From NCBI RefSeq assembly GCF_028368995.1, contig NZ_JAQNDL010000001.1, positions 640,001 to 704,000 of the forward strand: DNA of 64,000 nt. Reading direction: 5' to 3'. A program made the translations under genes and the position numbers. Source of the DNA: Nannocystis bainbridge (GTDB taxonomy: Bacteria > Myxococcota_A > Polyangia > Nannocystales > Nannocystaceae). Below are positions 3,473 through 58,828 of this stretch, one piece after another. Below the pieces are notes generated by a model. That model had not been told where the DNA came from. It ran no database searches and saw only the letters and a list, made by a program, of their open reading frames with translations. Every line of letters starts with the position of its first letter. Position 1 is the first letter of the stretch.

Positions 3473-3585
3473 CCCGAAGGCCAGGTCCGCAATGCTCGGA
3501 CCTGTCCCCGGGGACACCTCGCGAAAGAGGCCGCCAGCGCGACGCTGGCGGCCTCTGCCGTTTTATCGACCGCCCGCGGGCGGCC

Positions 3586-4704
3586 TCAGCGCGCCTCGGC
3601 CAGCTTGCCCGAGGTCGTCGCCAGGTACTCTTCCCACTTGCGGATCGTCAGCGCCTGGAACGCGTGCACCGCCGGGTTGAGCTCGGCGATGGGCGCCTGC
3701 CAGTGGCGGTTGTAGCCGTCCTGCTCGGCCTCGACCGCGACCCCGTCCTCCTCGAGCAGCGGCTTGAACACCACCTGCTTGGCGATCCCGAGCACCGGCT
3801 CCATCACCTGGCGCGGGATCTGCAGCGGCAGCCCCGGGACCTTGAAGCTGTCGAAGTAGAACAGGAAGAACGAGCGGGTGGTCTGCTCGTCGATCGGCAG
3901 GCAGAAGCACCAGTCCTTGATCTTCCCGTCGGTGTCCGACCACTGATACGGGTATTGATAGCAGAGCGTCATCGCATTGACGTTGGTGCGCTTGCGATCG
4001 ACGAAGTGCTTCATCAGCGGCCCGTCGGCCACCTTGGTGTCGTACGACACGTAGACGCGGTCGCCGTCGACCCGCAGGTCGGTCAGCGTCGAGTCCGTGA
4101 ACGGGCGGAACCGCCGGTGCAGGTACGCGTGGGTGAAGTCGCTGACGTTGTCGATGATCATCGAGTGGTGGGCCTTCCACGTGAAGTCCACCAGCAGCTT
4201 GGCCCACGGCTTCGGCCCGTCGAGCTCCGGGATCTCCGGCATCGGCGTCGCGTCGGCGCGCGCCGGGTCGCCGAAGAACACCCACACCAGGCCATAGCGC
4301 TCGCGCACCGGGTAGTGGCGCAGCTCGATCTTCGGCAGCGGCTTGCCGAACAGCTCGTGCGGCACCTTGCACAGCTTGCCGTCGCCGCCGTACGCCCAGC
4401 CGTGGTACGGGCACACCACGTTGCAGCCCTCGACCCGCCCGCCCGACAGCTTGAGCTGGCGGTGCGCGCAGCGGTTGTCGATCGCGCGCAGGGCCCCGTC
4501 CTCGCCGCGGAACACCGCGACCGAACGGCGCCAGAACGTCACCTCGACCACCTTGCCGACCGGCACCGCGCGCGCGTACTCGACGGCGTACCAGTGATTG
4601 GGGTCGAGCCCGGCCGCGCGGACCTTCTGCCGCTTGTTGCGCGCCTCCTCGAAGCTCGGCGGCGGCGCGCGCCCGATCGTGTGCAGCATCTCCGTCATCG
4701 TCAT
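3586..4704 (-). CDS. Rieske non-heme iron oxygenase (probable sterol-modifying enzyme)
   Basis: Rieske motifs CAH and CPYHGW; mononuclear Fe motif NVSDFTHAYLH; start overlaps the upstream stop (ATGA at 4701-4704). Confidence 0.9.
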   Translation of the reverse strand: MTMTEMLHTIGRAPPPSFEEARNKRQKVRAAGLDPNHWYAVEYARAVPVGKVVEVTFWRRSVAVFRGEDGALRAIDNRCAHRQLKLSGGRVEGCNVVCPYHGWAYGGDGKLCKVPHELFGKPLPKIELRHYPVRERYGLVWVFFGDPARADATPMPEIPELDGPKPWAKLLVDFTWKAHHSMIIDNVSDFTHAYLHRRFRPFTDSTLTDLRVDGDRVYVSYDTKVADGPLMKHFVDRKRTNVNAMTLCYQYPYQWSDTDGKIKDWCFCLPIDEQTTRSFFLFYFDSFKVPGLPLQIPRQVMEPVLGIAKQVVFKPLLEEDGVAVEAEQDGYNRHWQAPIAELNPAVHAFQALTIRKWEEYLATTSGKLAEAR

Positions 4705-5228
4705 CCTCGTCCTGTCTCGAACAGCGGGCGGACCTCGCCCGCGGGCCCGCGCCGCGGCAGCATTCGCCGCAGCAGCGCCAGCGGAAAGAGCACGTACGGC
4801 GCATACAACAGCGCCACCAGCCACGGCACCGTCGGCCGCGGCTCGCCGAAGGTGTGCACCCCGAGGAAGATCACCATCGAGTAGAGCATCACCGACGCGT
4901 AGATGATCGCGGGCCAGCGGATCCACTCGCGCCGGCGCACCAGCGCGACCGCCAGCACCGCGTAGAACGGCCCGAACACGAAGGCCGACACGCACGACGC
5001 GATCTGCAGCCACAGCGGGTTCAGCACGATCAGCGGATCGTAGGTGCTGCCCCACCAGTAGAAGAAGCCGCGCAGCCCCTCCGTCGCCGGCGCCATCGGC
5101 CCCGGCTCGAGCGCGGCCATGCGGTCGAACAGCAGCGACGTGCTGCAGAAGCTGAGCGCGAACACCAGCAGGACGCGGTCGATCCAGCGCACCTGGACAT
5201 GTCCCTCGTGACCTGTCACGTCCGCCAT
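4701..5228 (-). CDS. EXPERA/emopamil-binding-protein family membrane protein (sterol isomerase-like)
   Basis: Four TM segments; WWGSTYDPL..NPLWL and terminal YAPYVLFPL motifs; lies between CYP51 and the Rieske gene. Confidence 0.75.
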   Translation of the reverse strand: MADVTGHEGHVQVRWIDRVLLVFALSFCSTSLLFDRMAALEPGPMAPATEGLRGFFYWWGSTYDPLIVLNPLWLQIASCVSAFVFGPFYAVLAVALVRRREWIRWPAIIYASVMLYSMVIFLGVHTFGEPRPTVPWLVALLYAPYVLFPLALLRRMLPRRGPAGEVRPLFETGRG

Positions 5229-5252
5229 GTCCTCTCGCTCATGTCCCTGCGG
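5197..5252. repeat. 14-bp-period CATG palindrome array (4 units) across the CYP51/EBP junction
   Basis: acatgtccctcgtg/acctgtcacgtccg/ccatgtcctctcgc/tcatgtccctgcgg. Confidence 0.7.
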
Positions 5253-6666
5253 ACTGCTGGCCGACCCGCCGGTAGCGGACCCGGCACGGCGGGCGCGGGC
5301 CGACGATCAGGTTGGTGTAGTCGACCGGGTAGCTCGGGTCGAGCAGGTCGAACTCGAAGTTGCGCAGCAGGTGGCTCCACAGCGCGCGCAGCTGCAGCTG
5401 GGCGAACACGATGCCCATGCAGCGGTGGCGCCCGGCCCCGAACGCGATGTGGCCGTAGGGCCAGCGCTTGTCCTCCTCGCGGCCCGGCATGAAGCGGTCG
5501 GGGTCGAACCGGTGCGGCTCGGGGAACACCTCCGGCACCCGCTGACCGACCGCCGGCGAGGCGATGATCATGCTGCCCTCGGGCACCTGCTTGCCCTGGA
5601 ACTCGAACGCCTTGAGCACGCGACGCATCACCAGGATGATCGGCGGGTACAGGCGGAGGGCCTCCTTGATGGTGGCCTCGAGCAGCTTCATCTTCTGCAG
5701 GTCGTCGTAGGTGATGCGCTCGCGGTCGCCGAGGATCTCGCGCTGCTCGGCGACGAGGCGGCGGAAGATGTGCGGGTGCTGGGCCAGCAGCACCGCGATC
5801 CACGAGAACGTCACGCCGCTGGTGTGGTGGCCGGCGAACATGATCGTCAGGATGAGCCCCGTGATCTCGTCGACCGTCAGCTTGCGCCCGTCGGCGTAGC
5901 TCGACTCGACCAGCGTCTGCAGGATGTCCTCGTGGGTGTGCGCGTCGGAGCGGCGCTCGGCGACGATCTTCTCGATCAGCTCGACCATCTTGACCCGCGC
6001 CTTGTCGCGCCGGCGCATGGCCGGCAGCGGCAGGTACGGGGCGAAGAACGAGATGACGTTGATCCCGCCCTCGAGGTCGGCGTACAGCTCGGAGAACTCC
6101 TTGCTGAGCTTGAACCGCATCTTGTCGCCGAGCAGGCAGCGGGTCGACGTGTAGAGCGTCACCTCGTTGCCGACCTCGAGCATGTTGACCTCGCCGGTCT
6201 GGCCCCACTTGCCGAAGAAATGCTCCGACTCGGCGATGAAGCCGTCGGTGTAGGTCCGCAGCCGGCTCTCGCGCAGCGCCCCGTGGAAGAAGCCGAGCTG
6301 CTCCTTCATGATCTGCGGCTCGGCGTCGTAGGCGATGCCCTTGCCGAACACCGGCGTCATCAGCTGGTACGCCTCGCGCTGGCTGACCTCGTCGTCGCGG
6401 AAGCGGAAGTACTTCTCCTGCGCCGCGTGGCCGGTCATCACCACGCCGAGGGTGCCCGGCAGGCGCACGCAGAAGATGTCGCCGAACATGTCGCGCCCGC
6501 GCTGGACCATCGCCACCGGGTTCGAGCGCAGCTCGCCCGCGTGGCCGACGAACGGCAGGCCGCCCGGCAACATGGGCGGCAAGTTGGGGAGGTCGAGCGG
6601 GAGCGGGCGCAGCGTCGACAGCAACGTCGTCGCCGTCTGACGCACGTGTTCGGGGACCGTGAGCAT
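5239..6666 (-). CDS. cyp51: Cytochrome P450, sterol 14-alpha-demethylase (CYP51)
   Basis: CYP51 signatures AYQLMTPVFGKGIAYD and FAGHHTS; EALR; FDPDRF; heme motif FGAGRHRCMG. Confidence 0.92.
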   Translation of the reverse strand: MLTVPEHVRQTATTLLSTLRPLPLDLPNLPPMLPGGLPFVGHAGELRSNPVAMVQRGRDMFGDIFCVRLPGTLGVVMTGHAAQEKYFRFRDDEVSQREAYQLMTPVFGKGIAYDAEPQIMKEQLGFFHGALRESRLRTYTDGFIAESEHFFGKWGQTGEVNMLEVGNEVTLYTSTRCLLGDKMRFKLSKEFSELYADLEGGINVISFFAPYLPLPAMRRRDKARVKMVELIEKIVAERRSDAHTHEDILQTLVESSYADGRKLTVDEITGLILTIMFAGHHTSGVTFSWIAVLLAQHPHIFRRLVAEQREILGDRERITYDDLQKMKLLEATIKEALRLYPPIILVMRRVLKAFEFQGKQVPEGSMIIASPAVGQRVPEVFPEPHRFDPDRFMPGREEDKRWPYGHIAFGAGRHRCMGIVFAQLQLRALWSHLLRNFEFDLLDPSYPVDYTNLIVGPRPPCRVRYRRVGQQSAGT

Positions 6667-7472: not shown

Positions 7473-7531
7473 CCGGCCAGTGTGACAGATCGCCGCGCGC
7501 CTCACAGCGCCCGCGCGCTACCCTCCCGCGC

Positions 7532-8332
7532 ATGGAGCTCACCGACGTCCGCTACGACCGCGAGGGTGCGACCGCCCTCGTCACCCTCGATCGCCCCGCC
7601 GCGCGCAACGCCTACAGCGAGGCGATGGTCGAGAGCCTGGTGCACGCGATCGACCTCGCCGAGCGCGACGAGGCCGTGCGCGTCGTCATCCTCACCGGCG
7701 CCGGCCCGGCCTTCTCCGCCGGCGGCGACCTCAAGCGCATGCTCAACAAGGAGGGCATGTTCGCCGGCGGGCCAGCCGAGCTGCGCCGCCAGTACGTCGA
7801 CGGGATCCAGCGGATCTCGCGGCGCCTGGCGCTGACCGACAAGCCGATCGTGGCCGCCCTCAACGGCCCGGCGATCGGCGCGGGGCTCGACCTGGCGTGC
7901 ATGTGCGACCTGCGACTGGCCGCCCGCGGGGCCCAGTTCGGCTCGACCTTCGTCAAGGTCGGCCTGGTCCCCGGCGACGGCGGGGCCTACTTCCTGGCCC
8001 GCACGATCGGCTTCTCGCGCGCGCTCGAGCTCATGCTGACCGCCCGCGTGATCGACTGCGACGAGGCGCTGCGGATCGGCCTGGTCCACCGCGTGGTCGA
8101 GCCCGACGAGCTGCTGCCCGCCGCCCGCGCCCTGGCCTCCGAGCTGGCCGCCCTGCCCCCGGTGGCCCTGCGCCTGACCAAGCGCGCCGCCTACCGCAGC
8201 CACGAGGTCGGCCTCGACGCCGCGCTCGAGCTGGCCGCGACCTACCAGGGCGTGGCCCAGACCACCGCCGACCACCGCGAGGCCGTCGCCGCGATGCTCG
8301 AGCGCCGCCCGCCCCGCTTCACCGGCGAGTGA
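7532..8332 (+). CDS. Enoyl-CoA hydratase/isomerase (crotonase family)
   Basis: AFSAGGDL, KPIVAALNGPAIGAGLDLA, GLVPGDGG motifs. Confidence 0.95.
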   Translation: MELTDVRYDREGATALVTLDRPAARNAYSEAMVESLVHAIDLAERDEAVRVVILTGAGPAFSAGGDLKRMLNKEGMFAGGPAELRRQYVDGIQRISRRLALTDKPIVAALNGPAIGAGLDLACMCDLRLAARGAQFGSTFVKVGLVPGDGGAYFLARTIGFSRALELMLTARVIDCDEALRIGLVHRVVEPDELLPAARALASELAALPPVALRLTKRAAYRSHEVGLDAALELAATYQGVAQTTADHREAVAAMLERRPPRFTGE

Positions 8333-8346
8333 GCTGTTTCCAAGGG

Positions 8347-8402
8347 ACATGTCCTCCAGGGCATGGCCTCAAGGACATGCCCCATCGAGCATGTCCCTGC
8401 GG
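8347..8402. repeat. 14-bp-period CATG palindrome array (4 units) between convergent genes
   Basis: acatgtcctccagg/gcatggcctcaagg/acatgccccatcga/gcatgtccctgcgg. Confidence 0.85.
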
Positions 8403-8412
8403 TCCGCCGGGC

Positions 8413-8871
8413 TCACGAACCGAAGCAGTGCACCGCGCCCTCGATCTCGCCCGGGCAGTCGCTGTTGTTGCACGCGTCGACGTGATCGCCGCCGCAGAAC
8501 GGCTGGCACGCCGCGGCGCACGGATAGCCCGGCACGCACCCGTCGGGGTTGGGCAGGCACGCCGGCAGAGCGACCCCGCACTGGCCGTCGAAGCTCTGCA
8601 CGCACACCTCATCGTCGGCGCAGCCGCACGGGTTCGCGTCCTCGGTGGTCGCCTGGCCCGTCGTCGACGGCGCCCCGGTCGTGCTCGTGCTCGTGCTCGT
8701 GGTCGGCGCGTCGGCGGTGCTGCTGCTCGTGGTGCTGCTGCCCGTCGTCGTCGTCCCGGCGGCCGTCGTGCTCGTATCGGATGTCGAGGCGCTGGTGGTG
8801 TCGCTCTGCGGACCGCAGGCGGCCGTCAGCGCGAAGGCGAGGCCGATGATTGGATGTGTCGATACAGACAT
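8413..8871 (-). CDS. Lipoprotein with Thr-rich linker and Cys-rich C-terminal domain
   Basis: Lipobox LTAAC; T/S-rich stalk; multiple Cys in the C-terminal ~70 aa. Confidence 0.85.
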   Translation of the reverse strand: MSVSTHPIIGLAFALTAACGPQSDTTSASTSDTSTTAAGTTTTGSSTTSSSTADAPTTSTSTSTTGAPSTTGQATTEDANPCGCADDEVCVQSFDGQCGVALPACLPNPDGCVPGYPCAAACQPFCGGDHVDACNNSDCPGEIEGAVHCFGS

Positions 8872-8875
8872 GGCG

Positions 8876-9237: not shown

Positions 9238-11256
9238 GTGCCGGTCCCCCCCGACCTCCGCGCCCTGCTCGACGCTTTCTTCGCGCCTGCCCCCGGAGCC
9301 GGGCCGCTCGCGCTCCTGCACGCCGCGGCCGAGCTGCGCGCGCGCTCGAGCGGCGCGCTCACGAGCGGCGCGATGTTCGAGCTCCAGCGCCCGCTCGTGG
9401 GCGGCCCCTGGTGCCCGCGGCTGTTCGGCCCCATCGAGTCGCTGCGCTGCGGCTGCGGCCGGCTCGTCGGCCCCGAGCACCGCGGCGAGACCTGCGAGGG
9501 CTGCCACGTGCTCTGCACCGACGAGCCCCTGCGCGACCGACGAGTCGCCCACCTCGAGGTCTCGTTCGGCCTGGTCCACCCGGCGCTCGCGCCCCGCATC
9601 GCCGACCTGCTCGGCCTCGACTTCGATGAGCTGCGCGCCGTGCTGCTCGGCGAGGCCGTGTTCCTCGCCGACGGCCAGTTGGTCGCGCACGAGCACCACG
9701 GCATCGACTGGGACGACGAGATGTCCTACGAGACAGGTGTGGCCGCGATCCGCCGGCGCCTGGCGACCGCCGTCGATCCCGAGCTCGCGGCCGCCGGCCT
9801 GTCCGCCACGGCCCTCGTGCTCACCAGCGTGCCGATCCCGCCGCCCGGCGAGCGCCCGCTGGTTCACTCGCCGCACCTCGACGAGGACCGGTGGTTCCGC
9901 GAGCTGTGGTCGGTGCAGGTCGGCCGCGACAACGAGGCGATCGCCGCGCTGGCCGCCCGCGCGCTCCGCAGCGAGCGCCTGCTCGAGCTCGGGGCCCCGA
10001 AGATCCTGCTGGACCGCGACTGCGCCGAGGCCCAGCAGGACTTCGAGGCCATGCTCGAGCTGCTGGCGCGCCCGTCCGACGACCCCGGCCGCGCCCCCGA
10101 TCCGCGGCTGTCCGGCTGGCGCCCCGCCCCGCACCTCGGCGACGACGCGGACCACGTCCCCGGCGCTCCCTATCGGTTCCGCCTCGCCGGCGCCCCGCCG
10201 GTCAGCGAAGCGGACGACCGCGACACCCACCACCGCGCCCCGCTGCGCCCCGAGGTCCCGCGCGCCTGCGTGCTCGCCGACGGCGACCGCGCCCTGATCC
10301 AGCTCGGCTACGCGCTGCTGCTCGTGCACTGGCCCACGGGACATGTCCTTTGGGTCATGCCGGCGGCCGAGGCCCGGCTGCTCGGCGCGCGCGGCGACTG
10401 GGCCCTGTTCGGCGCCAAGTACGGGCGCCAGCTCGACGCCGAGGATCCGACGCTGCTGCACGGCCTTTACGCCCTCGACCTGTCCTCCGGGACATGGCTC
10501 GAAGGCCCTTATCCGGACCACCTGCCGGCGATCTTCGTCGAGAAGGGCGAGCCCGAGGACGCGTGGCTGTCCGACTGGCGCGGCCAGCGAGGGGCCCCGG
10601 GCGCCGAGGACCTCTCGGGCGACCGCCCCGACGAGTGGGCCCGCAGCCCCGATCACCGCTTCGTGTGGATGTCGTCGAGCCCCGACGACGGCGCCGTCCT
10701 CGACAGCGAGCGCGGCGTCGCAGTGCTCATGATCAGCCAGATGCGCGAGCCGGCCGCGGACGATGTGCCGACGGTCGCGCTGACCGGCCCCGAGCGCGAC
10801 GAGAACGGGGAGATCGAGCATCAAGTCGCCCCGGGCATCGCCCTCGCCCGGGTCGGCGAGGAGTGGCGGATCCTCGTGCCGGGCGGCCTGCTGCGCCGCG
10901 ACGGCCAGGTCGCGCTCGAGTTCACCGAGGCCGCGATCGAGGGCGCCAGCTTCGACAGCGCCGGCGCGCGCCTGCTGCTGGTCAACCGCGAGGCGCTGCA
11001 CGTCGTCGAAGTCGAACGGGGGCAGCTGCTCGGGCAGCTCGACCTGCGCCCGCTGGGGCCCGCGCTGGCGCTGCCCGAGTGCGTGCCGGAGGCGCTCGCC
11101 GACCTCGTCCTGGCCCACCACGGCACCCTGGCCGCCGCCCTCACGCAGCCCGACGACGCCCTGCGCGCGCTCGGCCTCGACGACGAACAGCTGGCCGCTC
11201 TGCGCGCCGAGCGACCGCCGCCGCTGCCGGGCCAGCTCGATTCGACATGCCCTTGA
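9238..11256 (+). CDS. RNA polymerase beta-prime N-terminal (Zn-finger/clamp)-like domain fused to a probable beta-propeller domain
   Basis: WCPRLFGPIESLRCGCG..HRGETCEGCHV..RDRRVAHLEV, LTSVPIPPPGERPLV and RSERLLELGAPKILL align by eye with RpoC domain 1. No NADFDGD. Confidence 0.8.
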   Translation: MPVPPDLRALLDAFFAPAPGAGPLALLHAAAELRARSSGALTSGAMFELQRPLVGGPWCPRLFGPIESLRCGCGRLVGPEHRGETCEGCHVLCTDEPLRDRRVAHLEVSFGLVHPALAPRIADLLGLDFDELRAVLLGEAVFLADGQLVAHEHHGIDWDDEMSYETGVAAIRRRLATAVDPELAAAGLSATALVLTSVPIPPPGERPLVHSPHLDEDRWFRELWSVQVGRDNEAIAALAARALRSERLLELGAPKILLDRDCAEAQQDFEAMLELLARPSDDPGRAPDPRLSGWRPAPHLGDDADHVPGAPYRFRLAGAPPVSEADDRDTHHRAPLRPEVPRACVLADGDRALIQLGYALLLVHWPTGHVLWVMPAAEARLLGARGDWALFGAKYGRQLDAEDPTLLHGLYALDLSSGTWLEGPYPDHLPAIFVEKGEPEDAWLSDWRGQRGAPGAEDLSGDRPDEWARSPDHRFVWMSSSPDDGAVLDSERGVAVLMISQMREPAADDVPTVALTGPERDENGEIEHQVAPGIALARVGEEWRILVPGGLLRRDGQVALEFTEAAIEGASFDSAGARLLLVNREALHVVEVERGQLLGQLDLRPLGPALALPECVPEALADLVLAHHGTLAAALTQPDDALRALGLDDEQLAALRAERPPPLPGQLDSTCP

Positions 11257-11300
11257 GGCCATGTACAATTCTTCATGTCCTAAGAGACATGCCCGAAGCG
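11245..11300. repeat. 14-bp-period CATG palindrome array (4 units) overlapping the stop of the beta-prime-like gene
   Basis: acatgcccttgagg/ccatgtacaattct/tcatgtcctaagag/acatgcccgaagcg. Confidence 0.8.
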
Positions 11301-11668
11301 ACAGCTTCGCCCGCCGCTCGGTGATGGCGCCCGCAGGATCGCCGGCGGACGCGTGAAGGCGAACTGCGCCGCGCGAACCCGACCGCTCGACCGCTACGAA
11401 ATGGATCGAGACACCGCCATGCGCGCCGCGGTTTCTCTGTCGTCGCTCGTATCGACCCCTTGCTCGCGGGAGGACCTCACCACCGCGGCGACCCCCGGCG
11501 CGGCGCGGTTCGGCCTGAAACTTCGGGTCGACGGCAAGGGTCGTCATCGCCGTCGAGGGCCGCCATCGCGGCTGTTTTCGCGGGAGCGCCGCGCGGCCTC
11601 GATGCAGCGAATTCCCCATCGCGTTCGACTTGCTCGCCGGGCCACGATCGATCATTCTCCATCCCCGT

Positions 11669-12472: not shown

Positions 12473-12614
12473 GGAGTCCATCCCCTGGCTGATGCTCGAC
12501 GGCGGCCCCCGGGTGCGCACGGCCGCGTCGGCTTCGACGCGGTCGCGCCCCGGCCCGCCAGCCCGGCCTTGACGACGCGCGGCGCGACGAGTCGGCGCCG
12601 ACCTTGCCGATCGA

Positions 12615-12669
12615 ACATGCCCGGGAGGACATGCTCTTCCAAGATGTCCTGTCAAACATGTCCGATGTG
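12615..12669. repeat. 14-bp-period CATG palindrome array (4 units, one of 13 bp) between convergent genes
   Basis: acatgcccgggagg/acatgctcttcca/agatgtcctgtcaa/acatgtccgatgtg. Confidence 0.8.
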
Positions 12670-12679
12670 ACAGCCGACG

Positions 12680-14437: not shown

Positions 14438-14654
14438 CGTGTGCTCTCCGTCCGCACCTGGAGTACCCGCGCCGGTGCGGCGAATTGCGAGATGACGAAA
14501 CCCGGCCGTGCGCCGGGTCGGGGGCGCTCGGCCCTGGGCGCGCCCTCGTCCCCATACGCACATGTCCCGGGGGACAGGTCGCTCGCGCGCTCGGGACCAA
14601 CGAGAATGCGCCGCTGGACCCGGTCCAGCGGCGCACCCTCGACCAGCGCGGCCG

Positions 14655-15631: not shown

Positions 15632-16882
15632 ATGTCTTCGCACCGCCCTGGCCCCCTCGCCCGCGCCTCCGTGGTCATCCTCACCGCGCTGGTCGCGACC
15701 CTCGCCCCCAGCGCGCCCGCGAACGCCTGCGGCGGCATGGTCTTCCCCGGCCACGAGGCCCGCGTCGGCGGCATGAGCGACCAGGAGCTCGCCGTCGTGT
15801 TCGCCGCCGACGAGACGGTGCTGGTCGCCTCGGCCCGCTACGAGGGCGTCGAAGCGGCCGAGTTCGCGTTCGTGCTGCCCCTCGCCAGCGCGCCGGCCGA
15901 CGTCCGCGACGGCGACCCGGCCCTGTTCCTGGCCCTCGACGAGCTCAGCGCCCCGCGCGTCGCGGTGTTCGAGAACCAGGACGAATCGATGGGCCTGTGC
16001 GGCAGCAGCGACAAGGCCGGCGGTGGCAACAGCCTCGGCGACCCCATGGGCGACCGCGGCGACGTCATGGTCCTCGATCGCGGCGAGACTGCCACCTACG
16101 AGTACGTCGTGATCGGCGGCGACACCGGCGTGGCGATCGCCGACTGGCTGGCCGACGCCGGCTACCCGCTGCCCGCCGACTACGCGGCCGCGCTCGAGCC
16201 GTACGTCGCGGGCGAGTGGTCGTTCTTCGCCGCCAAGGTCAAGCCCGGGGCCGACAGCGGGGTGTTGGCGCCGATCGAGCTGCACCTGCCGCCGGCCCAG
16301 CCCGCGACCTTCGAGGTCCCGCTGGCGATCGCCACCCACTCGATGAAGCCCGGCGCCGAGCTGCGGCTCACCACCTACTTCCTCGCCGGCGGCCCGGTGC
16401 TGCCCGCCAACTACGCGGCCCAGGCGGTCGACGACGACGAGCTGGTCGCGCTGTCGGAGAGCGAGACCAACTACGACGCGCTCGAGGCCGCGGTGCTCGC
16501 CAGCGACCCCGAGGGCGCGTGGGTGATCGACTTCTCCAACCCGCTCTACGCCGGCGCGCTCGGCGAGGCCTTCGACGAGGGCACCTGGGCCGGCCGCATC
16601 GACCCCGAGACCGCCAGCCGCGCGTGGCTCGACGAGTTCGCGACCCGCGCGAAGCTCGACGGCCTCCACCTCACCCGCCTGCGCACCGCCCTGAAGCCGA
16701 CGCAGGTCCGCGACCTCACCCTGCGCGCCGCCTCCGGCCCGCCGGTCGACAACGTGCACGCCGCCACCTACGACCCCGACGCCGGCGAGGGCTGCCAGAT
16801 CGACCGCACCGGCCGCCTGCCCCAGCTGCTGCTGCTGCTGCCGGTGCTGGCGTGGATCCGCCGCCGCCCCCGCCGCGCCTGA
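15632..16882 (+). CDS. DUF2330-like exported protein with MYXO-CTERM-like tail
   Basis: Signal peptide ending ANA-CGG; FAFVLP, WLADAGY and LTRLRT motifs; C-terminal GC + hydrophobic helix + RRR. Confidence 0.8.
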   Translation: MSSHRPGPLARASVVILTALVATLAPSAPANACGGMVFPGHEARVGGMSDQELAVVFAADETVLVASARYEGVEAAEFAFVLPLASAPADVRDGDPALFLALDELSAPRVAVFENQDESMGLCGSSDKAGGGNSLGDPMGDRGDVMVLDRGETATYEYVVIGGDTGVAIADWLADAGYPLPADYAAALEPYVAGEWSFFAAKVKPGADSGVLAPIELHLPPAQPATFEVPLAIATHSMKPGAELRLTTYFLAGGPVLPANYAAQAVDDDELVALSESETNYDALEAAVLASDPEGAWVIDFSNPLYAGALGEAFDEGTWAGRIDPETASRAWLDEFATRAKLDGLHLTRLRTALKPTQVRDLTLRAASGPPVDNVHAATYDPDAGEGCQIDRTGRLPQLLLLLPVLAWIRRRPRRA

Positions 16883-16906
16883 CCTGTAAGGGCAGCCGGT
16901 CGCCGC

Positions 16907-16948
16907 GCATGCCCGAAGGAGCATGTCCTTTCGGGCACGTCCCGTGCT
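16907..16948. repeat. 14-bp-period CATG palindrome array (3 units)
   Basis: gcatgcccgaagga/gcatgtcctttcgg/gcacgtcccgtgct. Confidence 0.8.
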
Positions 16949-17036
16949 GGCGTGGCTCCGCCAGCTCCCGGCTCCGCCCCCGACCGACGACGCCCGTTCG
17001 TGGATCCGCGCCGCGGCTCCTCGACTGGCCGAATGC

Positions 17037-17106
17037 GCATGTCCCTACGGACATGCCCCTTTGCGCATGCCCGATCGGGCATGCCCTCTCAGACATGCCC
17101 CTTGAG
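17037..17106. repeat. 14-bp-period CATG palindrome array (5 units)
   Basis: gcatgtccctacgg/acatgcccctttgc/gcatgcccgatcgg/gcatgccctctcag/acatgccccttgag. Confidence 0.9.
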
Positions 17107-17111
17107 ACACC

Positions 17112-20100
17112 TCACCCGAGCTGCCCCAGCAGCGCCCGGGCCTCGCGCAGGTCGGCCGTCTCCAGCCCTTCTTTAAACCACTCGTAGGCCCCGGCCACCA
17201 GCTCGCGGGCCTCGCCCGGGCTGCCGCGCAGGACCAGCAGGCGGGCCTGGCTCAGCGCCAGGCGCAGCTCCCACGCGCGCGCTTGCTGGCGGCGGGCCAC
17301 CTCGAGGCCGCGGCGGAAGCAGTCCTCGGCCGTGCGCGTGCCCGACGTCATCCCGGTCGACAGCAGCAGCTCGCCGCGCAGGCGCAGCACCTCGGCCTCG
17401 AAGAAGCGCTCGCCCGAGCGGCGCATGAACTCCTCGACCTCGTCGACCTTGCGCATCGCCTCGTCGTGGCGACCCGCGCGCCACAGGCCCCAGATCGCGG
17501 CCGCCTGGAAGAACGAGATGCCCGCCTTGGCGCCCGTGCGCGTCCACCCGGCCACGCCCTCGGCCAGCTCGCTCGCCCCGGCCTCGCGCTCGCCGCTCCC
17601 GAGCTGCGACCAGCCGCGCTGGATCTGGCACATCGCCAGCCATAGCTGCAGCTTGTGTTCGGTCGCCACCTTCTCGGCCCGGTCGGCCAGGTCGCGGGCC
17701 GTGGCGAACTCGCCGCGGTAGTTGTGGAGCGTCGCCAGGTAGTTCATCGCGAACGCGATGCTCAGCGGGTGCTCGATCTCCTGCGCCAGCCGCAGCGCCT
17801 CGCGGGCGCGTGCCACCGCCTGATCGGGATGACCGAGGAACCACAGCACCCACGCCAGGTACAGCCCATTGGTCACCCCGGGGTCCTGGCCGTAGCGCAG
17901 CGCCAGCTTGCCGTGCTCGCGGATGTCGTACAGCGCCAGGCCCTTCTCGGTCAGCTCGCGGCAGCCGGCGATCTCGCCGAGCAGCATCTGGCTGGTCCCG
18001 AGCGCGCGGTAGGCCAGCATCAGCATCGTGCGGTTGTCGGTCGTCTCGGCCTGCGCGACCAATTGCCGCCCGAGGTTGGCCGAGATCTCGGCCGCGCCGC
18101 CGACCATGTAGAACTGCCACAGGCCCAGCACCGACGGGAACAGCTGGGCGTCGTCGCCGGCGCGGCGGCACAGCTCGCGCGCGCGCGCGTAGGTGTCGTG
18201 GACCTCGGGCGCCGCGTAGCCGCGGGTCGCCATCAGCGGCGCGCCGAGGGCCAATTGCAGCGCCAGCTCCTTGCGGTCGCGCGGGTCGCCCTCGGGCCGC
18301 GCCCGCAGCAGCGCGATCGCCTGTGCGTAATGGGACACCGCGTCGGTGTTGGCCGAGCGCTGCACCGCCTTTTGTCCGGCCTTCTCGAGCCACTCGATCG
18401 CGCGCTCGTGATCGCCGGCCTCGACGAAGTGGTGCGCCAGCAGCTCGGGCTGCAGCTCGGCGAGTTCGGGGAACTGGCCGAGGATCGCCCGCGTCGCCTG
18501 CCCGTGCAGGTACTGCCGGCGCGGCCGCAGCAGCGAGCTGAGCGCCGCCTCCTGCACCAGCGCGTGGCGGAACACGTAGCGGGCCGCCTGCTCGCTGCCC
18601 TCGACGCGCACGATGCCGGCCTCCACCAATTGCATGAGCCCGGTGCGCAGCGTCTCCTCGTCGCGGTCCGACGCGTGGCGCAGCAGCGCGTACGGGAAAT
18701 CGCGCCCGAGCACCGCGCCGAGCTGCGCCACCTCGCGGCCGGCCTCCTGCAGGCGATCGAGGCGGGCCAGCAGCAGCTCCTGCAGCGTCGCCGGGATGGC
18801 CGCCAGCGCCGAGCTGGCCCGCCGCACCGCCGAAGCCTGGCCCTCGCGCTGCCACACCTCCGCCGCCGTCTGCGTGACCTCCTCGACGAACAGCGGGATG
18901 CCGTCGGCGCGGGCCACCAATTGCGCGACCAGCTCTTCTGGCAGCGCCTGGCCGCGGGCCGCCAGCGCCACCATCGCCGCCGTCTGATGCGGCGACAGCC
19001 GGCGCAGCGCGAGGCGGTGCAGGTGCGGCCGCGCCGGCCAGTTGGGCGCGAACTCCGGCCGCGAAGTCGCCACCACCATCAACGGCGCCTCGGTCATGCG
19101 CGCGACCAGCAGCTCGAGCAGCTCGAGCGTGCTCTGGTCGCTCCAGTGCAGGTCCTCGACCACCAGCAGCGTCGGTCGCTGCGCGGCCAATGCCAGCACC
19201 GTGCGGATCAGCGCCTCCTGCACCCGGTTCTTCAGCAGGTCGGGCGACAGCTGCGGCGCCGCGTAGCGCCCGTCCAGCGGGATCGCCAGGACCGCCGCGA
19301 ACAGCGGCACATGCTCGGCCAGCGGCACGCGCAGGTCGGCCAGCGCCGCCTCCACCCGCGCCAGCCGATCGCTCGCCGTCGCCTCCGGCTCGATGTCCAT
19401 CGCCCGCATCGTCGCCTCGAGCAGCGGGTGCAGGGCGCTGTTGCGGAAGTGCGGCCAGCACTGGCACACCAGCCGCTGGTGGGCCTCGCCGGCCGTGTAC
19501 GCGCGCAGCGTCTGCACCAGCCGCGACTTGCCGAGCCCCGCCTCGCCCGACAGCAACACGAACTGCCCGCGGCCCTCGCGGACCTGGGCCCACAGCCCGC
19601 GCAGCGCGTCGACCTCGGCCTCGCGCCCGACCAGCGGCGTCAGCTCGCCGCCCGCGCGGTCGAACCGGCTGACCGTGCGACTCGGCCGCAGCGCCCGCAG
19701 CACCTCGATCGTGCGGCCCCCGCCCGGCGGCCGGCGCTCGCCGCGGGCCTCGACCTCGATGGTCCCGCGGACCAGCGCGCGGGCCCGGCCGCTCAGCAGG
19801 ATCTCGTGCGGCGCGGCCTGTCCTTCGAGCCAGGTTGCGACGTGCGGCAGCTCGCCGAGCAGCCGCGGCGCCGCCTCGTGCTCGCGCTTGTCGGCGACCA
19901 CCGAGCCGCTGCAGATGCCGATGCGCGCCGCCAGGGTCGCCCCGCCGGCGCTGGCCAGCCCGCGCACCGAATCGACGACCAGGAACCCGGCCCGCAGCGC
20001 CCGCTCGGCGTCGTCCTCGTGGGCCGCCGGCCAGCCGAAGCACACCAGCGCGTGCCCGCCGTGGGCCGCCACCATCGTGCCCTCGAGCTGGCGGGCCACC

Positions 20101-22258: not shown

Positions 22259-22286
22259 GCCGGCTTTCTGCTACACGGGGGCGGAC

Positions 22287-29295: not shown

Positions 29296-29773
29296 CGGCC
29301 CTCGAAACGACGTCGCTACGCCCATGAGAGAGCTGCTGTTCGGCGCGCCACCGGACGCAGGCTCCTTCTCCGTCGACGACGACGCCCGCTCCATCACGCG
29401 GCCTCGTGGACCCTCGCCGGTGAGGGTCGTTTCGACCGTTACGGCGCCGACATGAGCTGACCGGCCGCCGCCCCATGAATGCGCGCATCGTTCATTCACG
29501 GCCTCGTGTATGCCGCGACATGCGTCAGAAATGTGCTGACGTGGATCTACGGTTCGCGCCACCCAGGGGGGACGCGGCCCCGCGACGGACCCTTTTGCCC
29601 CCACCCGCCGCTGCGACACGCCATCCTTATAGAAGGATGACGCCCATCCGTCTCCGATCGCGCGCCGGTGATCGCACGCCGGGCGACCGGCCCGCGGTCC
29701 GCCCGCGGTGAAAACCCAACAGCACCCTCGCACACGGCGATTCGCGCTATTTAAGCGAATCCCGACGCCGCCG

Positions 29774-29815
29774 CTATGACCAATCGTTCATGCCCCGAAT
29801 GACATGTCCTTCCCG
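29774..29815. repeat. Degenerate 14-bp-period CATG array upstream of the giant operon
   Basis: ctatgaccaatcgt/tcatgccccgaatg/acatgtccttcccg. Confidence 0.55.
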
Positions 29816-37585: not shown

Positions 37586-37628
37586 TGCCGACGACCACGC
37601 TTCCCACCCCCACCGCGCAGGAGTCACG

Positions 37629-40808: not shown

Positions 40809-40815
40809 GGTCCCG

Positions 40816-44397: not shown

Positions 44398-44783
44398 TAC
44401 GCGGAGCTCCGGGCGAGGCCTGACCGAAAGGACAGGTCTCGCCCCGCGCCGTCACGACTCGCACTCGAGCTCCGCCTCGAAGCGGCGAGTCGACATGGGC
44501 AGAACGTCTACTACGACCGCGCCTCCCGCCTCTCGGTGACCCACGGTCGGTCCCGCCCGGACATGCGCGCCGGCAGCCTGCCGTTCACGCCTGAGCCGGC
44601 ACCTGCGCAGGCGCCCCTGCGCGCATGTCCGCGTGCGAGTCCGAAGTGAGCCTCGATCCCGACCCCACGCCGCCCGTTCGCGCGCGGCGCAGGCCCGGTT
44701 CCGAGCCGATCCTGCGGCGAGCACCGCACGTTGATCGCCGCCGACCGCGAATGTAAAGATCGTCGGCGACGGAGGGTAGAGGG

Positions 44784-45468: not shown

Positions 45469-46569
45469 TCAGGGCGAGAAGCCGCAGCCGTCAAGGTTGT
45501 CGTAGAGCGCCATGCTGCCCTTGAAGCCGTTCGCCTTCATCAGCGCGTGCGCCATCTCGGCGTTGCCGCACCACAGCTTCTTGTTGTGGCCGAAGTACGC
45601 CGTGCTCTTCGGCAGGAACGCCGCCACGTCGAGGACGTCGACCAGCTCGCCGTTGTATTCGAAGCGGATCTCGCCGTCGATGGTCGCCGCGCCGAGCCCC
45701 ACGAGCGACTCGATCCCGTTGCCGGAGACCTTCACGCTGCCGCCGACGAAGCTCAGCGCCCCGAGCCCTTGCAGATCTTTTAATGAAGGGTGGCCGATCA
45801 GCTCGAAGCGGCCGAACCCCTGCGGCGTGGCCCCGATCGAGGTCAACTTGGCGAGCGCGTGCAGGCTCGCCAGCGGCGCGTTGGCCTCGATGACGAGCTG
45901 ACCGCCGACCTCCTCGAGGCTGTCCAGGCCGTCGAGGCTCGCAAGCGCCGTTTGCACGATCTCGAGATCGCCGCCGACCCGCCGCAAGCACTGCAGCCCG
46001 GCCAGGCTCGTCAAGCCGGGCGCGTGGATCGTCAGGTCGCCCGTGATCTCCCCGTAGGCCGCGAGCGCCGCGACGTCGAGCGAGTTCTCGATCGAGAACG
46101 ATCCGCCCAGCACCTCGAGGTCGGGCGCGCAGTCGATCGGTTCGCCGGTCGAGCCCTCACCCGTCGAGCTGTCCTCGCTCGTCGAGCCCGTCGTGCTGTC
46201 CTCGCCCGTCGAGCTCTCGCCCGTCGCGCTCTCGCTCGTCTCCCCCGTCGAGCTCACCTCGCTCGTCGAGCTCTCGCTCGTCTCCCCGCTCGAGCTGCCC
46301 TCGCTCGTCTCGCCGCCCGAGCTGCCCTCGCTCGATTCGGAGTCCGGCGTGAGCGGGGCGGTCGACTCCTCGGTGGTCGAGGTCGTCGGCCCGGTGGCGT
46401 CGGAGCCCTGCGAGCTCGTGCTCGCGTCAGTCGCCTCCGTGGACGCCGTCTCGGTCCCGGTCCCGCTCTCGCCGGGGCAGGCCGCGAAAAGACTCAAGCC
46501 GGCGGTCAGCACGAGCGAGTCGAGCGCGAGGGCGCGGTGCGACGATGACGATAGGGTCAGCCTGGTCAT
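45469..46569 (-). CDS. Lipoprotein with S/T/E-rich stalk and receptor-L/LRR-like domain
   Basis: Lipobox FAAC; repeats LTSLAGLQCLRRVGGDLEI and LASLDGLDSLEEVGGQLVI. Confidence 0.85.
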   Translation of the reverse strand: MTRLTLSSSSHRALALDSLVLTAGLSLFAACPGESGTGTETASTEATDASTSSQGSDATGPTTSTTEESTAPLTPDSESSEGSSGGETSEGSSSGETSESSTSEVSSTGETSESATGESSTGEDSTTGSTSEDSSTGEGSTGEPIDCAPDLEVLGGSFSIENSLDVAALAAYGEITGDLTIHAPGLTSLAGLQCLRRVGGDLEIVQTALASLDGLDSLEEVGGQLVIEANAPLASLHALAKLTSIGATPQGFGRFELIGHPSLKDLQGLGALSFVGGSVKVSGNGIESLVGLGAATIDGEIRFEYNGELVDVLDVAAFLPKSTAYFGHNKKLWCGNAEMAHALMKANGFKGSMALYDNLDGCGFSP

Positions 46570-55044: not shown

Positions 55045-55145
55045 AGGGGCCGTGCGAGCCGAATTGCTCGCGCGTGTCGTTTTCGCCGCGACCTCGGAGC
55101 CCGGGCTCCGTCTGGTCGGCGAACCAGTCCCAAGAAGGCCTCCTC

Positions 55146-55568: not shown

Positions 55569-55830
55569 TCGCGCCGCCTCGCAGCGACGATCCGCGGGCC
55601 GCGGATCGTCCGGCCCCGCGCCAGCTCGCGTCGTCCACGCTCTCCGACCTCCGCGAGATCGAAGGACCCATCACGACCTGCGACGCCCGCTTCGCGGCAC
55701 GATCGCGCGACGTGCTCGCGGTCTCGAGCCGTGAGAAATGACAGCGCCCGCGCGGGACCTCCTCACCGCGGTGAAGCCTCGGCGGGGCCCAGATTGACCC
55801 CGCCCGGCCTGCCATGCTCAGGTGGGCCGC

Positions 55831-57777: not shown

Positions 57778-57940
57778 CAGCCCGCGTCGGCTCCGCGGCC
57801 GCGCATGCGACCCCGACCGCCGCGAGCACGGCCGGGGTCGCTAGCTTCCCGGCGTCGCCGCCCGGCCACGCATCAACCTGTCCCATGGGCCATCTGTCAC
57901 GATTTCGTCCCTCCTGTAGGGACCGCCGCCCGACGCCCGC

Positions 57941-58705
57941 TCAACCCCGCCGAAGCGCCCGCTCGTGCCGGCGGTCCGACACCGCGCGGCCGATCAGGAT
58001 CAGCGTCCCGAGGCCCAGCCAGCTCAGGCCGATGACCCGCAGCGCCCTCACCCACCTTGCCCACAGCGCCTCGACGTGGCTCCCGGGCCGGTCCCAGACC
58101 ACGAACGCCACCGCGTCGAGGTTCGTCCCGGCCGGCACCAGCTCGCGGTAGCACGCCGCCTGATCGGCCGGCACGCGCACCAGCTCGTCGCTCGCCACGC
58201 TCCACGCGTCGCTGCAGCCGCGATCGATCGCCACGTTGTAGCAGGCGGCGAACACCTGCACCGGCTCGCCGGGCTGCCACGACGCCGGCACCACCGGTGC
58301 CACCGCGTGGTCCCGCCGGGGCGACGCTTTGCCGTTGTCGTGGCGATGCGACACCTTGACCGCGCGCGACCCGTCGACCCGCGCCGCCTCCGTCAAGGTC
58401 GCGCGCTCGACCTCCGGGCGCCCGGCGAACTCGGCCAGCGACAGCGCGACCGGCTCGCCGCCGGTGATCCGACCGTACTCCGCCAGCGGCATCCCGCCGA
58501 GGAACACCAGCAGCCCCGCCCCGGCCAGCCCGAACCCGCCCCAGACGCCGCGCAGCACCAGCGGCAGCCCGAGCACCAGCGTGGCGCCGGTCCCGGCGGC
58601 CAGCGAGCAGCTCTGGTACGTCACGGCCACCCCGAGCCCGACCAGCGCCGCCGCGGCCGCGGTGACCAGCACGAACTCGCGCACCTGCTGGGACGTCCCC
58701 GACAC
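57941..58705 (-). CDS. Membrane protein (start uncertain)
   Basis: N-terminal TM segments, soluble middle (VAPVVPASW) and C-terminal TM; GTG at 58705 chosen. Confidence 0.65.
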   Translation of the reverse strand: MSGTSQQVREFVLVTAAAAALVGLGVAVTYQSCSLAAGTGATLVLGLPLVLRGVWGGFGLAGAGLLVFLGGMPLAEYGRITGGEPVALSLAEFAGRPEVERATLTEAARVDGSRAVKVSHRHDNGKASPRRDHAVAPVVPASWQPGEPVQVFAACYNVAIDRGCSDAWSVASDELVRVPADQAACYRELVPAGTNLDAVAFVVWDRPGSHVEALWARWVRALRVIGLSWLGLGTLILIGRAVSDRRHERALRRG

Positions 58706-58772
58706 CTCGCGCCGAGGATATCGACCGACTCGCCGGTCGACAACCGCGCGCGAGCGATCGACGCCTCCCACC

Positions 58773-58828
58773 ACATGTCCTGTTGGCCCTGTCGTAGCAG
58801 CCATGTTCTATGGAACATGTCCCACGCG
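58773..58828. repeat. 14-bp-period CATG palindrome array (4 units)
   Basis: acatgtcctgttgg/ccctgtcgtagcag/ccatgttctatgga/acatgtcccacgcg. Confidence 0.7.

Follow-up and report, generated by a model that had tools for sequence, protein, structure and literature searches.

The genome carries 954 arrays of a 14-nt module, which consists of the 10-base palindrome GGRCATGYCC and four free bases, and most of these arrays lie just past the stop codons of genes. We read them as a lineage-specific RNA 3'-end hairpin array that acts on both strands and is REP-like in behaviour, and put the probability of this at about one half. The reading draws on the observed lattice, abundance, placement, conservation, foldability and strand asymmetry of the arrays. 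The phenomenon is real, and it is far larger than the window (the 64,000-nucleotide stretch analysed here) shows on its own. The original prediction, which had described the palindromes in the window, is partly supported in its interpretation.

In-phase units are present at every position where arrays had been predicted. GGRCATGYCC with at most one mismatch has 28 matches in the window against 12.0 +/- 3.3 in shuffles, none of which (0/100) reaches 28. The arrays are given below with their unit starts in brackets (G numbers denote related genomes; G000 is this genome).

3498..3521 (3498, 3512): weak two-unit copy, GGACCTGTCC ccgg GGACACCTCG, in the convergent gap 3473-3585, adjoined by a canonical hairpin plus T-run at 3526-3556; two in-phase CATG units in the orthologous gap of two relatives.
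5195..5255 (5195, 5209, 5223, 5237): four-unit array with a terminal half unit, second core CCTG, filling the 46-nt gap of a minus-strand operon (P450 gene 5239-6666, then EBP-family gene 4701-5192); three in-phase CATG in 5/5 relatives.
8345..8405 (8345, 8359, 8373, 8387): four-unit array plus half unit, filling the convergent gap between an enoyl-CoA hydratase gene, 7532-8332 (+), and an ORF, 8413-8871 (-); four units in the ortholog in G007, G005, G001 and G010, every spacer different.
10339..10362 (10339, 10353): two-unit copy inside or between ORFs, the gene model 9238-11256 being uncertain here; three units at the orthologous place in G010.
11243..11303 (11243, 11257, 11271, 11285): four-unit array plus half unit, with the stop TGA of ORF 9238-11256 in its first spacer; three to four units in G007, G005 and G001.
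12613..12663 (12613, 12627, 12640, 12654): four units, with one 13-nt step between the second and third, in the convergent gap 12473-12679; three units there in G001.
14558..14581 (14558, 14572): weak two-unit copy, second core CAGG; two units in G010 and three in G001.
16905..16942 (16905, 16919, 16933): three-unit array, third core CACG, beginning 22 nt past the stop (ends 16882) of the DUF2330 gene 15671-16882 (+).
17035..17109 (17035, 17049, 17063, 17077, 17091): five full units, the last ending 11 nt short of the stop of the kinase/AAA gene 17112-21263 (-), and a half unit that ends 2 nt short of it; arrays at the orthologous gap in 5/5 relatives.
29772..29809 (29772, 29786, 29800): degenerate three-unit array, cores TATG, CATG and CATG.
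44416..44439 (44416, 44430): two units, their variant cores complementary to each other, AGGCCTGACC gaaa GGACAGGTCT; the first begins 18 nt past the stop of ORF 40816-44397.
57874..57897 (57874, 57888): weak two-unit copy in the convergent gap 57778-57940.
58771..58822 (58771, 58785, 58799, 58813): four-unit array, second core CCTG, in a divergent gap by the gene calls used, upstream of the VgrG-like gene 59219-61108.

Several of the weak two-unit copies carry CCTG or CAGG cores.

The spacing of the units is exact. On contig C1 (4.5 Mb), CATG-CATG distances peak at 14 (1546), 28 (825), 42 (608), 56 (257) and 70 (127) over a background of about 30-120. The counts off phase are 25 at 13, 113 at 15 and 32 at 16, with no excess at 13 or 15. 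The peaks at 14, 28 and 42, which the original prediction had named as a check, stand far above their neighbours. In the whole genome (11 Mb) there are 2074 in-phase CATG chains of at least two units; the 954 chains of at least three are the arrays counted throughout. There are 1771 exact copies of GGRCATGYCC, where base composition predicts 117, and 29 of the reversed control CCYGTACRGG. The commonest 8-mer between genes genome-wide is GGACATGT, with 76 occurrences in 200 kb of this genome versus 1.9.

Arrays mostly have 3-6 modules, with a maximum of 21. The numbers with 3, 4, 5 and 6 units are 170, 263, 258 and 173; the preference for even numbers that strictly paired hairpins would predict is not seen. 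Position frequencies over 30 nt beyond both ends show a half unit (GGRCA) closing the arrays on each side and then background, and the module is therefore equally readable as TGYCC-N4-GGRCA. Since GGRCATGYCC is its own reverse complement, the orientation of copies within clusters cannot be defined. The predicted conservation of the CATG core is confirmed at 92-94% per position, versus 67-74% in the arms. Variant cores are mostly transversions (CCTG 70, CAGG 62); the G.U-compatible transitions are scarce (CGTG 4, CACG 7). Watson-Crick complementarity between unit positions 3 and 8 falls short of expectation (0.366 vs 0.433), which we attribute to the mixing of two sense orientations.

The spacers vary, as had been noted: neighbouring ones are identical in 4.0% of cases within arrays versus 1.2% between arrays. 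Recent slippage as the sole origin is rejected because spacers within one array are nearly independent. Some arrays are clear recent expansions, and there are signs of local duplication of 14, 28 and 42 bp, including in G007.

The arrays belong to a narrow lineage of soil myxobacteria. A strict three-unit pattern scan returned 80 loci, 76 of them from records titled Nannocystis. Two of the others (L053 and L078), from myxobacterial MAGs, look like true arrays; L042 and L064 are chance look-alikes, plain tandem repeats with identical spacers. Arrays occur in 8/10 genomes of the same genus vs 0/30 of other genera in the same family or class, and in 200 kb of the sister genus G024 no 8-mer is enriched comparably to GGACATGT in G000. 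The three-unit pattern had 0 matches in viral contigs, and carriage by phage is rejected on that ground.

The same array positions are found in five related species. From these, 26/45 arrays (about 9 distinct loci) could be mapped to an orthologous interval of G000; 24 of the 26 intervals have at least three units, 2 have two and none lacks units. Identity in orthologous arrays is 48% in the spacers and 71% in the arms, and the neighbouring gaps range from 81 to 332 nt. That the palindromes are kept across five species with their 4-nt spacers scrambled indicates that the arrays are under selection.

Placement relative to genes is strongly uneven. Convergent gaps, where several arrays had been predicted to lie, hold 488/954 (35% of 1414 gaps; 1.61 per kb). 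Tandem gaps hold 337 (7.8% of gaps; 0.33 per kb) and divergent gaps 34 (2.4%; 0.064 per kb). Called genes contain 95 arrays, and 859 lie outside them; the density is 10 arrays per Mb of coding DNA versus 1614 per Mb of convergent gap, about 150 times lower. The location is not of a promoter type, given the 34/954 in divergent gaps and the position of tandem-gap arrays by the upstream stop.

The arrays hug the stop codon. The median distance from the stop to the first unit is 11 nt in convergent gaps (nearer stop) and 21 nt in tandem gaps, where the next start codon is a median of 189 nt from the array. Where convergent gaps leave 80 nt or more free, single arrays (n=273) lie at relative position 0.2 or less in 104 cases, at 0.8 or more in 87 and at 0.4-0.6 in 18. 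In 31/83 long convergent gaps with two arrays, each array lies within 30 nt of its own stop. Among stop-to-unit distances, 6 nt stands out with 84 cases and is echoed at -8 and -22, which fits a stop TGA that supplies the TG of a terminal half unit. This arrangement is seen at the orthologous gap of window positions 16883-17111; the predicted overlap with stop codons is confirmed for some arrays. An array lies within 40 nt of the stop in 1266/7944 called genes. Of 102 tRNAs, 5 are followed by an array within 150 nt, and 1 is preceded by one.

As RNA, the window arrays fold at -21 to -46 kcal/mol (z -1.8 to -4.9 vs shuffles); for 17035..17109 the minus strand gives -46.3 and the plus strand -34.8 kcal/mol. 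Strand tests were carried out on 482 arrays oriented by the upstream gene. Sense RNA is the stabler in 264 arrays and antisense in 216 (means -31.6 vs -29.8 kcal/mol; Wilcoxon p 1.7e-4), and G.U pairings number 1883 against 1273 A.C. On the sense strand, the arms of inner units have 2798 G vs 2498 C (z 4.1) and 1498 T vs 1210 A (z 5.5). G+T exceeds A+C in the arms of 243 arrays and falls below it in 183. The spacers have no such skew, and the stretch from stop to array has a small, non-significant one (z 0.9 and 1.4). A small general transcription-linked skew may contribute to the asymmetry. Adjacent units carry complementary non-CATG cores 158 times vs 67 expected (CCTG/CAGG 65 vs 24). The stop-proximal units 1 and 2 are more complementary than permuted partners, with Watson-Crick-only z of 1.3, 2.9 and 3.1 in 4-, 5- and 6-unit arrays.

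We infer from these properties that transcripts end at the arrays, with stabilisation or termination as the effect. Transcribed just past the stop, neighbouring modules would pair into 10-bp stems with 4-nt loops, or alternatively nest as one long hairpin with 4x4 internal loops. A very stable structure would thereby be placed at the mRNA 3' end. It would define that end or shield it from 3' exonucleases and, helped by a factor, may make the polymerase pause or stop. As the module is its own reverse complement, a single array would serve both convergent genes. If arrays do define mRNA 3' ends, the ends of transcription units could be read off directly in a group whose very large, G+C-rich genomes are mined for natural products, and the arrays would be compact bidirectional parts for myxobacterial engineering. 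Canonical terminators look scarce in this group, with 5 found over 20 kb vs 4.0 in shuffles.

Several observations stand against the hairpin reading. The phase is stricter than hairpin energetics demand. About 72 arrays lie in frame deep within genes, where ribosomes would unfold them. Arm covariation with a specific partner is weak or absent for most unit pairs, the core variants are transversions, and stable tetraloops show no clear preference for the sense strand (GNRA 123 vs 102, UNCG 55 vs 46; not significant). No U-tract follows the arrays: over the 30 nt downstream, T stands at its background level, 2095/14460 (14.5%). The same organism ends 3/3 rRNA operons with canonical terminators, a hairpin plus TTTTTTATTT.

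Both the strictness of the 14-nt phase and the sequence specificity of the core speak for a reader, and a DNA-bound protein lattice therefore stays a serious, if tentative, rival to the RNA hairpin array. A dimeric protein would occupy each TGYCC-N4-GGRCA (or GGRCATGYCC) site and polymerise along abutting 14-bp steps, and so mark or insulate gene ends, possibly as a roadblock between converging polymerases or a topological barrier. At 10.5 bp per turn, a step of 14 bp corresponds to a rotation of about 120 degrees per site. Such a lattice fits a phase that is exact (1546 vs 25 and 113) despite scrambled spacers and variable neighbouring gaps, a core more constant than the arms with specific transversions as its common variants, and half sites at the array ends. 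Units are conserved towards the consensus and not towards the partner; palindromic spacers make up 10.1% vs about 7.3% expected by arithmetic from position frequencies; and in the 21-unit array the CATG phase persists where the arms have decayed.

The arrays inside genes bear on the same question. Two of them, in an Lhr-like helicase and in a kinase/AAA protein, were compared across species. Both are conserved in 5/5 relatives; the DNA units persist there even as the peptide they encode changes, as a DNA lattice would allow. The helicase array encodes 25-30 extra residues in G000 and 4 relatives by protein alignment (5/5 relatives by DNA alignment), and the segment is absent from the sister-genus orthologs G013, G011, G043 and G016. 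However, a symmetric duplex site predicts no strand asymmetry, and the arms have a sense G/T excess that the spacers lack. Nor does a lattice predict that arrays hug the stop, each its own in 31/83 two-array gaps, or that adjacent units are enriched in complementary core changes, and no candidate protein can be named. The polymerising-protein array of the original prediction thus keeps the strict phase and the CATG core in its favour; the tie to stop codons, the arm-only sense skew and some compensatory changes favour the transcript.

Structure alone hardly accounts for the constant sequence, the exact phase and the conservation of in-frame copies, which point to a new reader protein. Under the hairpin reading, a dedicated protein would probably recognise the constant CAUG-centred stem and the fixed phase. 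It is also conceivable, at odds clearly below even, that the arrays form the cis component of a system for marking gene ends, so far undescribed, in which a lineage-specific protein polymerises on exactly 14-nt-phased CATG palindromes in duplex DNA or in the folded transcript. Such a system would tag about one gene in six at its end, plus some intragenic sites. Structure-only terminators and REPs would then have a sequence-specified counterpart, one that would arise in its own way, by in-frame insertion and 14-nt expansion.

Selfish or neutral repeats, relics of a once-mobile or slippage-prone palindrome that survive at 3' ends and in protein surface loops, are an improbable explanation. The in-frame intragenic arrays, with the clade-only helicase segment, and the signs of local duplication agree with it, and tolerance alone would give depletion from divergent gaps and coding DNA. 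However, 0/26 orthologous intervals (about 9 loci) lost their arrays. Units stay near the consensus and in exact phase while the spacers turned over, where uniform decay is expected without selection, and arrays hug the stops instead of spreading over the free gap. No Y1 transposase was found in the genome, and the three-unit pattern has no match in viral contigs. The arrays are a clean natural case for the origin of short palindromic repeats without RAYT and their settling at stop codons, and for how DNA- or RNA-level selection overrides protein-level selection within genes.

A DNA mark for another purpose, either a CATG methylation-linked signal or a lineage-specific uptake or self-recognition sequence, is very improbable: the motif is lineage-specific and strongly over-represented (531 solitary units vs about 117 expected for all units), and Neisseria uptake sequences also form inverted pairs at gene ends, but neither idea accounts for the 14-nt phase or the stop-codon tie, coding DNA is poor in arrays, and CATG is not depleted (3.6 vs about 2.6 per kb expected from composition). 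The methylation-linked mark of the original prediction found no support. A clade-specific CATG methylase was sought in the D12 adenine methylase family PF02086, the sole family examined; it occurs in 34/41 relatives and is uninformative because array-free genera carry it too.

Literature searches found no description of a phased gene-end palindrome array, in agreement with the original prediction. A search of the whole window against Rfam at the gathering score gave 0 matches, as did one of 16800-17200 at E<=1. A textbook p53 half site has the sequence of the 10-mer GGACATGTCC; this is a coincidence, and the top literature matches are all eukaryotic p53 work.

REP elements have a role in mRNA stabilisation. 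Proposals for REPs also include functions in transcription termination and in organising the chromosome (PMC2817692). The predicted REP-like nature holds for behaviour: the arrays are abundant (1771 units, 954 arrays), lineage-specific, palindromic, mostly extragenic, and clustered after stops and between convergent genes. They are not REPs: no RAYT gene was found in the genome, and a GTAG head is missing from the arrays. The conserved GT(A/G)G head adjoining the palindrome is described as a REP feature (PMC2817692), and neither it nor another conserved flank is seen in the 30 nt beyond both array ends. A profile search of G000 (90.5% complete) for the RAYT/Y1 transposase PF01797, whose presence nearby had been suggested as a check, gave 0 matches (3 candidates scored; control genomes positive). 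REPs are 20-40-nt imperfect palindromes in alternating orientation, whereas here a perfect 10-bp dyad recurs head to tail every 14 nt exactly, with free spacers in between. The positions of the arrays are stable across species, in contrast to BIMEs, which are described as very dynamic (PMC2817692).

Intrinsic terminators, including proposed tandem-hairpin and bidirectional G+C-rich forms, share with the arrays stable G+C-rich hairpins directly after genes (here a mean of -31.6 kcal/mol in the 482 arrays, a median of 11-21 nt from the stop) and service to convergent genes. The arrays are not canonical terminators because no U-tract follows; in addition, their sequence is constant at about 1000 sites, and terminators need structure only. 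For hairpins without U-tracts, one study describes purified mycobacterial RNA polymerase as not stopped in vitro (PMC3993855).

The in-frame arrays, of which the helicase segment is absent from out-of-lineage orthologs, are similar, in behaviour only, to the Rickettsia palindromic elements (RPE). RPEs are palindromic repeats that lie in frame within coding genes and add a peptide segment. They are single, unphased elements of about 100-150 bp; the arrays are mostly extragenic and tied to stops. The uptake sequences of Neisseria (DUS) and Haemophilus (USS) are genus-specific 10-12-mers with thousands of copies, often inverted pairs that form gene-end hairpins. They are unphased and common inside genes, whereas the arrays keep an exact 14-nt phase and strongly avoid coding DNA (10 vs 1614 per Mb) instead of being evenly spread. 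MetJ met-boxes, Fur hexamer arrays and plasmid partition-site repeats are short dyad boxes, 2-5 or more at a fixed step, on which a protein polymerises. Those tandem operators lie at promoters or partition sites and number few to tens per genome, whereas the arrays described here stand at about 1000 gene ends.

The gene-end element is real, very abundant and conserved. Its unit is the 10-bp palindrome GGRCATGYCC, repeated at a step of 14 nt with four-base spacers between units; in-phase runs, mostly of at least three units, are called arrays here. One window array reads as follows.

17035-17100: five palindrome copies with four free bases between them, then a further half copy

Every coordinate named in the original prediction has units in a common 14-nt register. 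At up to one mismatch, the motif matches the window 28 times, against 12.0 ± 3.3 in dinucleotide-preserving shuffles, and 0 of 100 shuffles reached 28. The predicted peaks in CATG-to-CATG distance at 14, 28 and 42 nt were also seen on contig C1 of the genome (1546, 825 and 608 counts), with further peaks at 56 (257) and 70 nt (127), while off-phase distances of 13, 15 and 16 nt number 25, 113 and 32. The whole genome (11.05 Mb, 5 contigs, 71.5% G+C), of which the window is C1:640001-704000, holds 2074 in-phase CATG chains of at least two units and 954 of at least three. The exact palindrome occurs 1771 times, compared with 117 expected by composition and 29 for the reversed control. The commonest 8-mer of all intergenic DNA is GGACATGT (2728 copies).

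For an unbiased estimate, unit composition was measured on units flanked by CATGs at a 28-nt distance (n = 2073). The CATG core is kept at 92–94% per position and is exact in 81% of units; position 3 is a purine and position 8 a pyrimidine in 86–88%, and conservation of the outer G, G, C and C is 67–74%. The spacers, about half A+T, vary as had been claimed, with no consensus at any of the four positions; the first position avoids A and the last avoids T. Counted after weight-matrix extension, array length ranges from 3 to 21 units (3, 170 arrays; 4, 263; 5, 258; 6, 173; 7, 66), and even unit numbers are not preferred genome-wide. Past the last full unit and its spacer lies a half unit (G.52, G.50, n, C.63, A.41), followed by background. 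Since arrays end in this half unit, the module may equally be written TGYCC-N4-GGRCA. The spacers of one array are nearly independent of each other, neighbours being identical in 4.0% of cases within arrays versus 1.2% between arrays. This agrees with the view that the units are too divergent for recent slippage, except in a few arrays, where duplications of 14, 28 or 42 bp look fresh.

Several individual repeats deserve mention. The 21-unit array at C3:1237899-1238188 has decayed arms, with CATG still in phase. All spacers of the 8-unit array at C3:1085840-1085947 are ctga, which points to recent expansion. The 10-unit array at C1:638596-638731, just upstream of the window, forms a 42-bp higher-order repeat with each third unit replaced. 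Four-base palindromes are over-represented among spacers genome-wide (GATC 79, TCGA 61, CCGG 41, CATG 39), at 10.1% against about 7.3% expected by our own arithmetic from position frequencies. The window tandem repeats at 2553-2666 (15/45 bp), 26902-27089 (15/33), 46142-46334 (27/57), 62172-62312 (39) and 62765-63004 (48) have periods that are multiples of 3; they are probably coding repeats unrelated to the 14-nt lattice.

Placement was scored against 7944 genes called by a purpose-made codon-usage scorer, in which stops are exact and starts approximate. The claim that several arrays lie between convergent genes extends to the whole genome.

Table. Placement of the 954 arrays relative to called genes
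Convergent gaps: 488 of 954 arrays; 35% of 1414 gaps; 1.61 per kb
Tandem gaps: 337 of 954 arrays; 7.8% of 4322 gaps; 0.33 per kb
Divergent gaps: 34 of 954 arrays; 2.4% of 1444 gaps; 0.064 per kb
Called genes: 95 of 954 arrays; about 10 per Mb

In convergent gaps, the array starts a median of 11 nt from the nearer stop. The corresponding distance in tandem gaps is 21 nt, and the next start codon is a median of 189 nt away. Arrays of at least two units are present in 653 of 1291 convergent gaps. Where the gap is roomy, single arrays hug one stop (relative position ≤0.2 in 104 of 273, ≥0.8 in 87 and 0.4–0.6 in 18), and of the 83 convergent gaps holding exactly two arrays, 31 have each one less than about 30 nt from its own stop. 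Overall, an array lies no more than 40 nt from the stop in 1266 of the 7944 genes. The stop-to-unit distance spikes at 6 nt (84 cases), with echoes at −8 and −22. The spike fits an arrangement in which the stop codon TGA supplies the TG of the terminal half unit (TGACC-N4-unit), as observed in an ortholog of the gap 16883-17111. An array lies within 150 nt downstream of 5 of 102 tRNA genes and upstream of 1. At the ends of the three rRNA operons there is, instead of an array, a classical hairpin with TTTTTTATTT behind it. Within the window, a hairpin at 3526-3556 (14-bp stem, then GCCGTTTTAT) adjoins the weak array at 3498 and looks like a canonical terminator. Downstream, the array at 58771-58822 is followed by a VgrG-like gene (59219-61108) with Phage_GPD, Gp5 trimerisation and OB domains. 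The region 30065-44397 contains three very long plus-strand ORFs (2506, 1052 and 1193 aa), the first with no Pfam match at E ≤ 1e-5.

The strict three-unit pattern occurs in this genome and in 8 of the 10 others from its genus (completeness is 88% and 64% for the two without it); it matched in none of 30 genomes from other genera of the same family and class. A public genome collection yielded at least 80 loci. Among the 80 listed, 76 are in records titled Nannocystis and two look like true arrays in myxobacterial MAGs; the other two, in unrelated bacteria, were set aside as chance tandem repeats. Six genomes of the genus, the present one included, are array-rich. Five small fragmented same-genus genomes have 0–2 matches each, and about 16 kb of DNA from these contained no in-phase chain. 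No comparable over-represented word was found in a 200-kb sister-genus sample.

Array positions are conserved among five relatives. Over the first 22 kb of the window, where synteny holds, gaps with an array also carry one in each relative in which the gap is identifiable, and array-free divergent gaps are array-free there too. From 80 kb of each relative (45 arrays), 26 arrays could be mapped to an orthologous interval, which holds at least three units for 24 and two units for 2, with 0 lost; these 26 are non-independent and represent only about nine loci. Nineteen equal-length orthologous pairs are 71% identical in the arms and 48% in the spacers, the latter figure being raised by a single conserved operon gap; the surrounding gaps range from 81 to 332 nt. 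Stable positions, arms more alike than spacers and variable gap lengths together suggest purifying selection on units and phase, with the spacers free. On the minus strand at 4701-6666, a two-gene unit suggestive of sterol-type chemistry combines a cytochrome P450 gene (5239-6666) with an EBP/EXPERA-family gene (4701-5192). An array fills the 46-nt gap separating them, and this gap, spacers included, is nearly identical in the five relatives. Synteny with the relatives' stretches stops near 22 kb, and from about 22000 to 64000 the arrays are fewer and more degenerate. Judged from mapped array positions, our genome has about 36 kb more than the relative G010 between C1:656857 and C1:713259.

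Arrays also occur within coding sequence: 72 are located in frame at a depth of over 100 nt within called genes, and third-position G+C is high to either side of them. Two were traced across species: the first belongs to an Lhr-like helicase, the second to a kinase/AAA protein. In 5 of 5 relatives these two arrays keep their position, with the DNA units kept and the spacers, and hence the peptide, variable. The 25–30-residue segment is absent from helicase orthologs of sister genera (G013, G011, G043 and G016; 53–56% identical). Absence there and presence in all five relatives indicate an in-frame gain in the clade ancestor, and the array has since been kept at the nucleotide level. Two Lhr-like helicase paralogues, C1:2589822-2591435 (L099) and C1:1405501-1407000 (L097), each have an array in about the same loop after an ARFLxG motif; alignment of L097 with its homologs in other genera also breaks at that loop.

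We put the probability that these are RNA 3′-end hairpin arrays at about 0.5. Strand tests used 482 arrays oriented by the gene whose stop precedes them. Pairings between neighbouring units comprise 1883 G·U versus 1273 A·C, and the sense-strand arms of inner units have 2798 G versus 2498 C (z 4.1) and 1498 T versus 1210 A (z 5.5). Arm G+T is in excess in 243 arrays and in deficit in 183; the spacers have no G/T skew, and the skew in the transcribed stretch from stop to array is small and non-significant. Predicted folding favours the sense RNA over the antisense by a mean of 1.8 kcal/mol (264 vs 216 arrays, p 1.7e-4), and the five-unit window array folds at −46.3 kcal/mol on the adjacent gene's strand versus −34.8 on the other. 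Adjacent units have complementary non-CATG cores 158 times against 67 expected (CCTG with CAGG, 65 vs 24), and the two stop-proximal units exceed permuted partners in complementarity (z 1.3, 2.9, 3.1). No U-tract was found 3′ of the arrays, which rules out a canonical terminator. The likeliest role of a hairpin array would be protecting or defining the mRNA 3′ end, perhaps after factor-dependent termination, suggested because, in PMC3993855, hairpins without U-tracts did not stop purified actinobacterial polymerase.

Partner-specific covariation was not found in other unit pairs, core variants are transversions and not wobble-compatible transitions, and the sense strand shows no clear tetraloop preference. 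These points, the missing U-tract, a 14-nt phase far stricter than loop energetics demand and the persistence of arrays in translated regions speak for a factor recognising both sequence and spacing. The RNA-structure and reader views can both hold where the protein acts on the folded transcript; a reader on duplex DNA would set them against each other. We hold such a DNA-bound protein lattice to be possible, though the less probable account. Alongside the apparent selection on units and phase, relic repeats without function seem improbable. A methylation or uptake mark is the least credible reading, with very little chance of being right.

The element is apparently undescribed, as originally supposed: no description was found in the searched literature, which covered few subscription journals, and no Rfam family matches. 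REP/BIME is the closest system in behaviour, and to that extent the proposed REP-like nature stands. However, the GT(A/G)G head and dynamic positions that define REP/BIME in PMC2817692 are not shared, the head being absent next to the arrays and array positions being stable. The suggested RAYT-type transposase (PF01797), a third defining feature given there, was not found in this genome either. Other known systems each share one trait with the arrays and differ in placement or architecture: Rickettsia palindromic elements have in-frame copies, uptake sequences have genus-specific abundance, and MetJ- or Fur-type operator arrays have phased dyads. In kind, the element belongs with dispersed palindromic gene-end repeats, as a variant set apart by its exact 14-nt lattice, sequence-specific core and conserved in-frame copies.
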